64,000 nucleotides of DNA from Shigella phage SHFML-26 (KX130862); one strand, 5' to 3'; counted from the stretch's first letter, positions 1,600 through 13,457 are shown. A program made the numbers and translations. Notes: a model not told the origin generated them from the letters alone.

Positions 1600-2010
1600 T
1601 CATTTTTTCTTATGTTGAATATTCCAAGGCGGGTTAAACAGCTTAATGAATAGTGGTTCCTCTAGGTCAATCGTCGCGATTGTCATTGTACCTAACTCAT
1701 TTGTCATAGAAAGATTAAAACATTGGCGGGCGTAAAATTCAACTTTGCTTCCTTCCTTTAGCGCAGAATGAATTAATGCAGATTTAGTAGAATCAGACGT
1801 TTTGTCTTTACGATTAATAGCAGTTCTATAATAGTTTATTCTTTTACGTAAATTTTTAGTTTTTCCAATATAAACAAGCTCATCATTTATAGCAATAGCA
1901 TAAATTACGTTATACTTGTTTGGAATAGATAATTGTTTTATACTTCCGTTGTCGTCTAATTCTAGCTCAGTATATTTAATAAATGAATATTCTGTTGCAA
2001 TTTCTTTCAT
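1600..2010 (-). CDS. denA: endonuclease II
   Basis: 136-aa product [15 protein letters not shown]... with GIY-YIG-like [16 protein letters not shown] motif; position between nrdB and rnlA as in T4. Confidence 0.9.
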
Positions 2011-2037
2011 AATAAAATGGGCCTTGCGGCCCACTCC

Positions 2038-2540
2038 TTAAAAGTATTTTTTAAAACTCATCATAACTTTATCATCAACATCATTATCAATCTGTGCAAC
2101 AAGGTAAGATGACAATTCTACTTCTTGTGGCGCAGATTGAACATTATCAGAATTAAGATATTCACGAATCCAAGGATATGGATGTTTAACCGGAGCATCG
2201 GTAATTGGGCATGGAAGACCACACTGCTTCATACGAGATACAGTTAAGTAATCAATAAAGCTCCACATGCTATTTGTATTTAATCCAGGAACATCTCCAT
2301 CTTTAAATAAATGAACTGCCCAATCTTTTTCTTGGCGGTTAACTTCCATGAAAATATCAACTGCTTCTTGTTCACACTCTTGAGCAATTTTAACCCATTC
2401 ATCGCCATCAGTACCAGATTGAAGTTGACGAATAATATATTGGGTGCCTTTAAGGTGAAGCTGCTCATCACGCGCAATGAACTTCATAATCTTAGCATTA
2501 CCTTCCATGATTTCCATATTCTTATGGAAGTTAAAGGTAC
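2038..2540 (-). CDS. nrdB: ribonucleotide reductase small subunit NrdB, exon 2
   Basis: MEIMEGNAKIMKFIARDEQLHLKGTQ... RNR beta C-terminal half; joins exon 1 in frame (676+503 nt = 393 codons). Confidence 0.85.
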
Positions 2541-3630
2541 CGTATGTTCGATTGAGCTCGCTAATTCTCAACCCGTTCTCTTATGAACTGCTGCATGTTA
2601 CCATGCAGTCCAGACTATATCACAATCCCGGAGGGATTCTCCCCATTTCGAGTCGCTTGACCCTACGTCCGAAGACTAGTCGTTGAACCTTGTTTTGCAA
2701 TTGTCGCCGTGCCATCGTTTATATGTTGATGGTGATAAATCTTTCTTATCACAATATGGACAATTCAATTGAATTCTATTTGGATTTAATTTACATCTGT
2801 CATTATGTTTTAGATAAAATCCAGGACCTTTACCAATGTGACCACAGAAATCACATGTGATTTCTTTTTGTGCAGGATGGGTCCCGTTCTTAACCATTTC
2901 TAATGTTTTTGCTGATGTTCTTTTCTTATGGTCTTCTGATAAGAAATGATGTGAACCGTCATTTACCCGTTTTGATTGAGTTTCTGACTGCATTTTACCA
3001 CCGCAAAATACATGAGTACCTTCTTTTATAGCTGCAATATTGCGTTCTTTAACTTTTGCAATATGCTCAGCTTGTTGAAAATTATGTATACCTAATGCAG
3101 CTCTATTTAAATTAGATTTACGCTGTATTTCACCATCTAAAAGATGAAATGTACCATTTTCTATCTTAGATTTAATAGAGGCAATATTTTTAGCTCGTAC
3201 TTCAGGGATATTAAAAATCTGGATTTCTCTAGATTTTGCGGCTTTAGAAGCTAATTCAGAAATTTCTTCAGGAGAATATTTCATTCTAAGCTTTATAGCA
3301 TGACAAGCCTGGTAATCTTTTTGAGCTAAATGTATATCATAATGTTCCTGTATAGAAAGGCACATCAAATTATCTAAATCATTATTTTCACGGTTACCGT
3401 CTTTATGATGGATTTCGTATGTTCTTCCATCAGAATCTTTAGGTATAGGTCCGTTAGCATCTATCCAAATTTTTCTATAGTTCAATTGTGCATCCTCTTA
3501 AAAGTATAATCATATTTATATTATACTAATTAAAGGTGCAAGCAAAACCTTGGCTGCTAGTTTTCCTATAAAGGACTTTCCAGCAATTAAAGGAGTTTTC
3601 GATAAACGTTACCGTTTAAAGGCGCATTTT
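2541..3630 (-). mobile_element. group I self-splicing intron in nrdB (about 1090 nt) carrying I-TevIII
   Basis: Exon 1 ends on U, intron ends on G; 3' core (approx 2571-2690) resembles the td intron 3' core at 8081-8225; contains an HNH endonuclease ORF. Confidence 0.8.
2676..3485 (-). CDS. I-TevIII: HNH homing endonuclease I-TevIII, full length (269 aa)
   Basis: Intron-encoded ORF with HHKDGNRENNDLDNLMCLSIQEHYDIH HNH motif and C-terminal Cys-rich zinc-finger-like region. Confidence 0.85.
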   Translation of the reverse strand: MNYRKIWIDANGPIPKDSDGRTYEIHHKDGNRENNDLDNLMCLSIQEHYDIHLAQKDYQACHAIKLRMKYSPEEISELASKAAKSREIQIFNIPEVRAKNIASIKSKIENGTFHLLDGEIQRKSNLNRAALGIHNFQQAEHIAKVKERNIAAIKEGTHVFCGGKMQSETQSKRVNDGSHHFLSEDHKKRTSAKTLEMVKNGTHPAQKEITCDFCGHIGKGPGFYLKHNDRCKLNPNRIQLNCPYCDKKDLSPSTYKRWHGDNCKTRFND

Positions 3631-4306
3631 ACGCAAAAGATACATAAAAACGAATTGCTTCTAAGGCATTAATAACGTGCAAACAGAGGTAAAGAGATTT
3701 CATTAAAGCACGTTTAGCTTCGGCTTCTTGTTTAATAGCTCGGTTTAAACGAAAATCGGCATCAGGAGATTCTTTAGCTAGTTCTACAAATTCTTTAGCA
3801 TTTTCCCATTCACGGGTTTTAATCAGAACGTCATCATAATAGCGTCCAATGGATTCAGCACGTTTCATAATAGCTTCATCTAATACAATCTCATCAAATA
3901 CCTTTGACGGATCAGTATAAAGATTTCGCATGATATGTGTATATGAACGGCTGTGAATAGTTTCACTAAAAGTCCATGTAGCAACCCATGTATCAAGACT
4001 CGGGTCTGAAATTAATGACATAAGTACAGCAGACGGCGCACGACCCTGAATGCTATCTAAAAGTGATTGATACTTCAGGTTGTTAGTAAAAATATTTTGC
4101 TGGTACTGAGGAAGCTTATTAAATTGTGCAGCATCCATCATCAAGTTTACTTCTTCAGGACGCCAAAAAAATGATAAAGATTTCTCAATAAGTTCTTCAA
4201 ATACTCTATGTCGTTGAATATCATATCGAGCTAAACCCAATCCAGAACCAAAAAACATCGGCTCAGTCAAAATATTAACAGGGGATGTATTAAAAACTGT
4301 ACTCAT
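3631..4306 (-). CDS. nrdB: ribonucleotide reductase small subunit NrdB, exon 1
   Basis: MSTVFNTSPVNILTEPMFFGSGLGLARYDIQRHRVFEEL... ending ...RFYVSFA then T of the split Cys codon; track ORF stop TAA lies in the intron. Confidence 0.85.
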
Positions 4307-11767: not shown

Positions 11768-11797
11768 ATAGTACCATGGAAGGACAAGGATGTAAAC
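11768..11797 (-). promoter_or_regulatory. T4-type early promoter (GTTTACA -35, 17-bp spacer, TACTAT -10)
   Basis: Reverse complement reads GTTTACAtccttgtccttccatggTACTAT, with A/T-rich upstream element. Confidence 0.5.
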
Positions 11798-11869
11798 CGT
11801 TTTGTGAAAAAATTTTTGAAATAAAAAAGGGGACCTCTAGGGTCCCCAATTAATTAGTAATATAATTTA

Positions 11870-12775
11870 TTAAAGGTCATTTAAAAGGTCATCCAGATCC
11901 GTGTCATCAGCACTAGATGAACTGCCAGAGCTTGAGCTCATAAAATCATCTTCAGTTTTTGTATTGAAGTCATCAACATTGAATGCATCCAAATCATCAG
12001 CAACTTTATCAGCTTTCTTAGCAGCAGTTGCAGCGGCACCACCCATAGCAGCAGTTCCCATAACTTGACTGAACTTAGTGCTCAGTTCTTCAAACGATTT
12101 GAATTTATCTTTAGAAGTCATTTCAGAAAGGTCAACCATTTGTTCGAACAGTTCTTTCTGGAAAGATTCATCGTCAATGTTTGGAATCGCAGATTGATTC
12201 AGGAATTTAGATTCATCGTAGTTACTAAATCCAGAAACTTGTTTAACTTTCAGTACAAAGTTAGCACCTTCCCACGGACAAGTTACATCAACCGGAGTTT
12301 CACCCATTTCGACATCAACCGCAATCATTGCATTGATTTTATCCCAGATTTTCTTACCGAAACGGTATTTAAATACTTTACCTTCGTTTTCTGGAGCAGC
12401 TGGGTCTTTTACAACAAGAATGTTAGCCCAGTAAGAAGTTTTACGTTTAACAAGACTGTACTCTTTATTGTCAGTGTTGTACAGATCATTTTTACTGATG
12501 TATTGACATACTGGGCAAGAATCGTAATCACCGTGAGTAGATGAACATGTTTCAATATACCATTTACCATTTTTCTTGAAACCGTGATTTACAAGAATTG
12601 CGAATGGTGCTTGTTCATCATTTTTAGACGGAAGAAAACGAATTACTGCTTGACCGTTACCCGCATTATCGAGTTTCAGTTTCCACTCGCCTTTATCTTC
12701 AGAAGAAAAACCTTTATTGCCATTCAGTTTAGCCATTTGTGCAGCAAGTTCAGCAGTAGATTTACGTTTAAACAT
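11870..12775 (-). CDS. 32: single-stranded DNA-binding protein gp32
   Basis: 301 aa [49 protein letters not shown]... with acidic Ser/Asp-rich C-terminus. Confidence 0.95.
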
Positions 12776-12824
12776 TTTATTTCCTTTTTAATTTAATTAA
12801 CAGTTGGTGCTATGACACTTTACC

Positions 12825-13457
12825 TCATAGCTGGCATAATTCGCAATACTCTGGGTCTTCGAGAGGTATCCAACCTGAGTTGAAATACTTTACCATCGAT
12901 TTAGCAGTTGTATCAGTTATATTTATATTACCTTTAACTCTTCGCCATCCAGGAGTTTTACCGTACAGATTAGAGGATAATAATAACACATAATTCTCGT
13001 AAGCGATATGAGATAATTTCCAAGACTCTATATTAGCTCGTGATGTTTTCCAAGGTCTAAAATCGTCACGGTTCATATAATTAGCCAATCTCATATGCTC
13101 TCTAACTTCCGGGTCTTTGGCTGGATGAGTTTCACCACTCACACCAAATCCACCACCAGCATATACCAGATTAAAATAGTCTGGATTATCTCTGGCATTT
13201 ACTTCAAGTTGGTATTTTCGTTCTGCTTCAATAACATCCAAGTCATCATCAATTTGAATTATTTTAACGCTCGGTTTTTGATGCATTACCGCATTCAAAA
13301 ATCTTTTTTGTTTACATGAGCTCCAGTATTCCTTTCCAGAAGAGTCATATATTATTCCGTTCTCAAATGAGCAATTTAATTTACTACCGATATAGTAGTA
13401 TGGCGGAGTCTTATTTTTGACACGGTCTTCAAATGTAAACCAATATACTATATTCAT
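12825..13457 (-). CDS. segG: GIY-YIG-type freestanding endonuclease (SegG-like)
   Basis: 210 aa with N-terminal IVYWFTF...YYIGSK GIY-YIG-like motif; between 32 and 59. Confidence 0.6.
   Translation of the reverse strand: MNIVYWFTFEDRVKNKTPPYYYIGSKLNCSFENGIIYDSSGKEYWSSCKQKRFLNAVMHQKPSVKIIQIDDDLDVIEAERKYQLEVNARDNPDYFNLVYAGGGFGVSGETHPAKDPEVREHMRLANYMNRDDFRPWKTSRANIESWKLSHIAYENYVLLLSSNLYGKTPGWRRVKGNINITDTTAKSMVKYFNSGWIPLEDPEYCELCQL

Follow-up and report, generated by a model that had tools for sequence, protein, structure and literature searches.

Homing elements target conserved and functionally critical genes such as those encoding ribonucleotide reductases (PMC2988022, PMC3045599). The systems closest to the locus treated here, positions 1600–13457 of a 64,000-nucleotide (nt) stretch of Shigella phage SHFML-26 (KX130862; "the window" denotes this stretch at its full length), are the homing endonuclease genes (HEGs) of phages T4, T6 and RB3. 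Cleavage of the allele lacking the respective gene and biased inheritance have been shown for I-TevI, SegG and MobE of T4 and for I-TevIII of RB3 (PMC2988022, PMC2790892, PMC1865063), the latter being an active enzyme (PMC1865063). T4 endonucleases cut the DNA of phage T2 at sites corresponding to the excluded markers, and the subsequent repair swaps T2 for T4 sequence; gene 32 is the target of SegG in relatives without segG (PMC2988022, the latter in its Table 1). Inheritance of MobE, of I-TevI and of the nrdB intron is in each case about double what would be expected, co-conversion extends over at most ca. 2 kb, and MobE mobilises the defunct nrdB intron of T4 in trans (PMC2790892).

The first 16 kb of the window are 96.9% identical to T4 (AF158101, 135918–151083) and 98.9% identical to Escherichia phage vB_ECOLIGBLB0003, and the window is, by sequence comparison, that of a Tequatrovirus. 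Its minus-strand genes rnlA, denA, nrdB, mobE, nrdA, td, frd, 32, segG, 59, 33, dsbA and rnh are collinear with the T4 annotation. Positions 1600–13457 very probably represent the nrdB-nrdA-td-frd-32 segment of a T4-like phage equipped with the standard selfish HEG set of T4, T6 and RB3. All five endonuclease open reading frames (ORFs) listed in a preliminary description of this DNA were found, namely denA (1600–2010), the I-TevIII gene (2676–3485), mobE (4303–4944), the I-TevI gene (8225–8962) and segG (12825–13457), all on the minus strand as are the exons, the introns, nrdA and gene 32 discussed below. That description counted five genes of homing endonuclease families within ca. 12 kb; the gene identities and nuclease families hold, but DenA is not a homing enzyme, and the correct tally is four HEGs plus one non-mobile GIY-YIG nuclease.

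The gene set is already known and nothing new: the annotation of RB3 (KM606994) lists all five genes, with order and positions unchanged. The RB3 proteins match those of the window in 266/269 (I-TevIII), 245/245 (I-TevI), 207/210 (SegG) and 135/136 (DenA) residues. In contrast, RB3 MobE, with 243 residues, shares only the N-terminal HNH domain (ca. 60 residues) with the 213-residue MobE of the window, the C-terminal region being unrelated, and the td-frd interval contains different ORFs, in RB3 one of 115 residues. T4 (AF158101; PMC2988022) has the same insertion sites and target genes, an identical I-TevI (100%), a SegG identical in 208 of 210 residues (99%) and the same overlap of nrdA and mobE. 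It differs by a truncated I-TevIII and a mobE split into mobE and nrdB.1, and the T4 genes mobA, segF and segA are absent from the window. T6 (MH550421, AY262134) carries a mobE of 642 nt between nrdA and nrdB, whose product is identical to that of the window in 212 of 213 residues; it differs from the window in that its nrdB lacks the intron and hence I-TevIII.

Introns, endonuclease genes and DenA

The bounds of the nrdB group I intron (2541–3630) were set by comparison with intronless alleles. With 1090 nt it is of the long form, and joining of exon 1 (3631–4306) to exon 2 (2038–2540) yields an intact NrdB of 392 residues, the exon junction TTTGCGT/GTACC being equal to the intronless nrdB of T6 and G4498. 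The encoded I-TevIII is a full-length HNH protein of 269 residues with a TTG start, which is recognized by Pfam HNH_3 (48.7 bits, cut-off 24.8) and phrog_12324 (E=5.6e-193) and corresponds to the active RB3 enzyme. The T4 nrdB intron has no counterpart of window positions 2937–3412, which leaves a 97-residue I-TevIII remnant devoid of the N-terminal HNH half. Both forms occur in the databases, 83 of the 118 I-TevIII records being full-length and ca. 35 containing only the T4-type remnant.

The td group I intron (8078–9093, 1016 nt) has the 5' end TAATTGAGGCCTGAG, the same as in T4. Its exons, 9094–9642 and 7766–8077, join to an intact thymidylate synthase of 286 residues, and the junction FLG/LPFNIA equals the intronless td of AR1. 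Both introns keep their splice junctions, so that NrdB and thymidylate synthase can presumably still be made. I-TevI, the intron-encoded GIY-YIG enzyme of 245 residues, is covered by Pfam GIY-YIG (66.8 bits, cut-off 22.6), I-TevI_ZnF (73.4 bits) and I-TevI_DNA-bd (110.5 bits), and 185 records contain at least 80% of its gene. Within td exon 1, a 13-nt patch (9130–9142) located 35–49 nt upstream of the intron insertion site deviates from T4, RB3 and vB_ECOLIGBLB0003 by seven synonymous differences over five consecutive codons. Its interpretation as a private recoded patch by the I-TevI site was rejected, because it is exactly matched in the three phages KarlGJung, FL23 and FL44 and thus constitutes a natural haplotype.

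The free-standing mobE, a T6-type allele encoding 213 residues, overlaps with its start the stop of nrdA (TAATGA), an arrangement also described for T4 (PMC2988022), and with its stop the start of nrdB (ATGA). The assignment of MobE to the HNH family, which the preliminary description had exposed to refutation by domain searches, is borne out by Pfam matches above cut-off to HNH (24.4 bits, cut-off 21.4) and NUMOD3 (35.9 bits), followed by a C-terminal CxxC zinc-finger module. Searches of PDB sequences with MobE and with I-TevIII gave no significant relatives. The MobE alleles of the window and T6, of RB3 and of T4 have the N-terminal HNH domain in common and differ in their downstream parts. 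The T4 reference contains a 141-residue mobE and a separate 83-residue nrdB.1 in another frame, compared to the single 213-residue ORF of the window, and identity to T4 falls to 91% over nrdB exon 1 and the 3' part of mobE versus ca. 97% elsewhere.

The mobE region of the T4 reference reads in three different frames, and nrdB.1, annotated there as a "hypothetical protein", matches the last 83 residues of the window/T6-type MobE with 98.8% identity (4303–4554; T4 4299–4550). The matching end of MobE is the CxxC...RWHxxxC zinc-finger module. A C-terminal motif like that of MobE, CKYC...RWHNEKCKFKD, is also present in the distant SegG homologues P0028 and P0029, and the sequences suggest that DNA-binding modules are common to HNH and GIY-YIG enzymes.

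Exon 1 of nrdB contains the nick-site region of MobE (codon 42, FFWRPEE block). The MobE-dependent nick was mapped to the region of codon 42, i.e. to the stretch of nt 114–131 (PMC2790892). Codon 42 is AAA in the window, and nt 114–131 show numerous differences from G4498 and AR1, two phages without mobE. Over its first 180 nt, nrdB equals that of vB_ECOLIGBLB0003 and deviates by 1 nt from that of T6, both of which carry the same mobE allele. This linked haplotype, the drop in identity to T4 over nrdB exon 1 and the 3' part of mobE, and the td exon 1 patch were counted as traces of local exchange.

SegG, the free-standing enzyme of 210 residues encoded between genes 32 and 59, is less readily placed by domain searches. 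No Pfam family was found in it at E<=0.1, a precomputed Pfam domain is present in 0 of 29 homologues, and a profile built from 26 homologues detected nothing relevant among PDB sequences and gave a negative result when compared with I-TevI by hhalign. The sole link at the profile level is phrog_314 (E=1.6e-7), which SegG and I-TevI match in one and the same region of the profile. However, the best match of the predicted SegG fold is the catalytic domain of I-TevI, and in a pairwise alignment the invariant residues E79 and N96 of SegG fall on the catalytic residues E75 and N90 of I-TevI. The homologue profile shows no variation in the YIG triplet (Y22-I23-G24) and almost none at Y5 of the IVY triplet. 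The domain search, whose failure the preliminary description had named as refuting, thus formally failed in Pfam, but the GIY-YIG assignment stands on the fold, the conserved motif residues and the 99% identity to the characterized T4 SegG.

DenA, a protein of 136 residues, is essentially the same protein as T4 endonuclease II (PDB 2WSH) without a notable difference. It is recognized by Pfam GIY-YIG (27.2 bits, cut-off 22.6), matches the solved structure of the T4 enzyme with E=5e-87, and is 100% identical to the T4 ORF (tblastn) and identical in 135 of 136 residues to DenA of T6, as to that of RB3. The GIY-YIG catalytic fold in common with I-TevI and SegG might be taken to indicate a fifth HEG and, consequently, five mobile elements in 12 kb. 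We consider this very improbable in view of the constant position of denA by nrdB and a protein identity of ca. 99% in every relative examined (T4, T6, RB3, G4498, AR1 and vB_ECOLIGBLB0003). An empty denA site was found in none of them, including G4498 and AR1, which lack the neighbouring HEGs. Because denA occupies the same locus in all these relatives, DenA is not classed as a homing endonuclease. Moreover, it consists of the nuclease domain only, the DNA-binding modules found at the C-termini of Seg and Tev enzymes being absent, and its annotated role in T4 is the nicking of cytosine-containing host DNA. DenA is a fixed phage gene product that degrades unmodified host DNA by means of the catalytic fold of I-TevI and SegG, and it is not mobile.

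Between nrdB and denA (2011–2037), a G+C-rich hairpin is followed by a T-run (GGGCCGCAAGGCCCATTTTATT), resembling an intrinsic terminator that the annotation of phage G4498 shows at the corresponding site. The longer denA start proposed by the ORF finder (GTG at 2034) falls inside this terminator-like hairpin.

Occurrence, density and expected activity

I-TevIII, mobE, I-TevI and segG are true homing endonuclease genes, being patchy in occurrence yet highly conserved, as expected of mobile elements. A comparison across relatives, as proposed in the preliminary description, revealed a patchy presence of these four genes and a constant one of denA. G4498 and AR1 have an uninterrupted nrdB and td and no mobE (empty sites), T6 contains mobE and the td intron together with an intronless nrdB, and RB3 has all five genes. 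Set against 580 records with an nrdA fragment, I-TevIII was found in 118, the mobE query in 183, I-TevI in 214 and segG in 140 records; the sporadic presence of segG is deduced from 140 versus 580 records, the empty sites of G4498 and AR1 covering nrdB, td and mobE. Most database copies of these HEGs are at least 99% identical.

The preliminary description regarded the segment as a hotspot for marker exclusion and localized gene conversion, which agrees with the established view for the near-identical T4 enzymes (PMC2988022, PMC2790892). In analogy to the T4 literature, during a mixed infection with an HEG-lacking relative each enzyme would cut or nick its conserved target on the other genome, i.e. 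nrdB in the case of I-TevIII and MobE, td in the case of I-TevI, and gene 32 (11870–12775, encoding the single-stranded DNA-binding protein with 99.0% amino acid identity to T4 gp32) in the case of SegG. Recombination-dependent repair would then copy from the carrier genome the HEG along with at most ca. 2 kb of adjoining sequence. As an outcome, carrier alleles would be over-inherited, corresponding to marker exclusion and localized gene conversion. The carrier genome itself would be protected by interruption of the homing site by the intron or by polymorphism of the target. As is the case in RB3, the two enzymes directed at nrdB appear to be intact, and the functionality of the four HEG products may be assumed from the 99–100% identity to characterized proteins.

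Alternatively, the HEGs might be decaying relics without mobility, like I-TevIII and mobA of T4, and the segment would then be a graveyard and not an active hotspot. Such a fate is exemplified by the 97-residue remnant of T4 I-TevIII and by the broken mobE frame of T4 (141-residue mobE plus nrdB.1), and HEGs are expected to degenerate once fixed (PMC2988022). However, the four HEG ORFs of the window are full length and uninterrupted, their catalytic motif residues are intact, and 99–100% identity links them to the experimentally active forms RB3 I-TevIII, T4 I-TevI and T4 SegG. The high identity among most database copies is also consistent with a recent spread. Decay is, on this evidence, unlikely, and we prefer to regard the segment as the standard set of selfish, presumably active HEGs.

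All four HEGs are located within 10 kb of the 64-kb window (4/4; p ~0.014 assuming uniform placement). Another gene of an endonuclease family was not detected in the remaining ca. 50 kb of the window, from which mobA, segF and segA of T4 are missing, and the ORFs in the non-T4 segments of the window contain no nuclease domain. The published account of such a density, as given at the outset, is biological and not statistical.

A few points weigh against the reading of the segment as a set of active homing elements. In simulations of a T4-scale genome (169 kb, 15 such genes), at least four of them fall within 10 kb in ca. 44% of the cases; the clustering, though real in the window, does not stand out statistically among phages of this kind. 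At the Rfam gathering threshold no intron was found, and the E-value mode alone recovered two group I cores, both matching RF00028 under the gathering score, at 2591–2831 in the nrdB intron (35.6 bits, E=2.4e-6) and at 8126–8356 in the td intron (42.5 bits, E=2e-8). Both matches fall short of the threshold because the intron RNA is interrupted by the endonuclease ORF. Finally, the published internal terminator of mobE was missed by a simple terminator scan.

Private lesions in nrdA, gene 43 and regA-62-44

The nrdA gene (4944–7208) carries private lesions as judged by comparison with relatives. Codon 357 is TAA (6138–6140) due to a single G-to-T change, and the natural Met358 codon comes immediately after it (TAAATG). 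Positions 6061–6419 harbour 12 private substitutions, 11 of which are non-synonymous (the stop and ten missense changes in codons 264–383), and all private changes outside this 360-nt stretch are synonymous. The 12 changes are matched in 0 of 5 aligned relatives, and the best of 580 records reaches at most 97.0% identity over 5950–6450. Of the ten missense changes, six fall on residues that T4 has in common with E. coli R1, and missense changes at such conserved residues point to a probable loss of function.

The nature of the substitutions was considered as a possible mutational signature and gave none: the types are mixed, without a diversity-generating retroelement (DGR)-like or single-mutagen pattern, and the preference for A residues (8/12) is not exclusive. 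No reverse transcriptase came to notice when genes were assigned by comparison with T4, although no search aimed at this enzyme was made.

Similar private lesions are present ca. 50 kb away from the HEG cluster, with no HEG nearby in the window. Gene 43 (minus strand, ~59199–61895) codes for the DNA polymerase and is essential in T4. It contains an in-frame TAG at codon 55 (window 61670–61760) and, in addition, the change D65Y. The TAG results from three single-A insertions within 22 nt (CT-A-GCGCT-A-CCTCAAAAATTT-A-CC), after which the frame is restored. The palindrome TAGCGCTA at this position of gene 43 includes an AfeI site (AGCGCT). At 62197–62991 (junction 62432), a deletion of 1114 nt relative to T4 (30208–31321) and vB_ECOLIGBLB0003 has removed gene 62 and joined the AAA-bearing N-terminal portion of gp44 in frame with residues 27–122 of RegA (Pfam AAA plus Translat_reg). 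The regA-62-44 region is intact in 499/499 records covering it.

The preliminary description had suggested that the HEG cluster could relate to the nrdA lesions. In such a case, the lesions would be a by-product of the HEGs, generated when breaks made by MobE or I-TevIII are repaired mutagenically, or by co-conversion from a damaged donor, or they would mark a working two-piece NrdA separated at TAA-ATG, comparable to the mobE-split nrdA of Aeromonas phage Aeh1. In favour of this relation, nrdA directly adjoins mobE, and the stop at codon 357 followed by Met358 could allow re-initiation. In Aeh1, nrdA is likewise read as two ORFs next to mobE and is split by the HEG without loss of function (PMC3045599). 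However, no known donor carries the 12 changes, neither among the five aligned relatives nor among the 580 records. The distance between the lesion cluster and the site nicked by MobE (codon 42 of nrdB, ~4180) is ca. 1.9–2.2 kb, at or beyond the co-conversion limit of ca. 2 kb, and that to the I-TevI site is ca. 2.7 kb or more; the portion of nrdA nearest to mobE is free of missense changes. Homing repair copies intact donor sequence and does not create missense changes. The mutated residues conserved with E. coli R1 and the comparable lesions in gene 43 and regA-62-44 are also at variance with a homing product.

The analogy to Aeh1 is limited as well. In that phage, the insertion point of mobE falls within the part of nrdA bounded by the Cys439 and Cys462 equivalents, away from residue 357, and the enzyme is put together again by means of tails that its parts have acquired (PMC3045599). 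The window, in contrast, shows a point-change stop, no insertion, no tails and mutated conserved residues nearby. A direct check for coincidence of the nrdA stop with the Aeh1 mobE split site was negative, the positions being different. An origin of the nrdA lesions from the HEGs is highly implausible.

Because the nrdA changes are private, distant from the cleavage sites and paralleled by lesions without a nearby HEG, the nrdA damage is not a consequence of the endonuclease cluster. It is best read as one of several sequence-specific lesions, which might be real mutations or the result of engineering or an assembly error. The TAA-ATG junction at codons 357/358 could alternatively reflect a tolerated two-piece NrdA or be the mark of mutagenic repair tied to the intact adjacent pair of MobE and I-TevIII, a proposal with only a slight chance of being correct. 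The evidence, i.e. the mutated conserved residues and the like lesions elsewhere in the window, points away from it. If true, it would represent a second, independent fragmentation of a ribonucleotide reductase associated with homing endonucleases.

Other features of the window and biological meaning

The remainder of the window contains the tail-fibre genes, rII, 39, dda, 41, uvsX and 43, up to gene 45. Two small ORFs flank frd, 9642–9848 (68 residues, phrog_9550) and 10426–10671 (81 residues, phrog_3183), both of which T4 lacks; no nuclease domain was found in either of them with Pfam and PHROG profiles. Gene 39 (36965–38785) is unsplit, encodes 606 residues and is free of mobA and of the gene 60 bypass arrangement. 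The segF locus (49775–50145) is occupied by two small ORFs instead of segF, and at 56639–57487 a 282-residue glycosyltransferase of the TAGT family takes the place of segA and the beta-glucosyltransferase gene. The dam gene is absent (50703–50724), likewise in vB_ECOLIGBLB0003. Its absence was considered as a further lesion and rejected, since in this closest relative gene 56 also adjoins gene 61, which identifies a lineage trait.

For the interpretation of this genome it follows that the endonucleases should not be held responsible for the damage in nrdA, which belongs with the other private lesions of this sequence. The segment itself provides a natural example in which all four HEGs of the nrd/td/32 region are full length, compared to T4 with its broken I-TevIII and fragmented mobE frame. 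In marker-exclusion or trans-homing crosses, a phage of this kind could be used as the donor.

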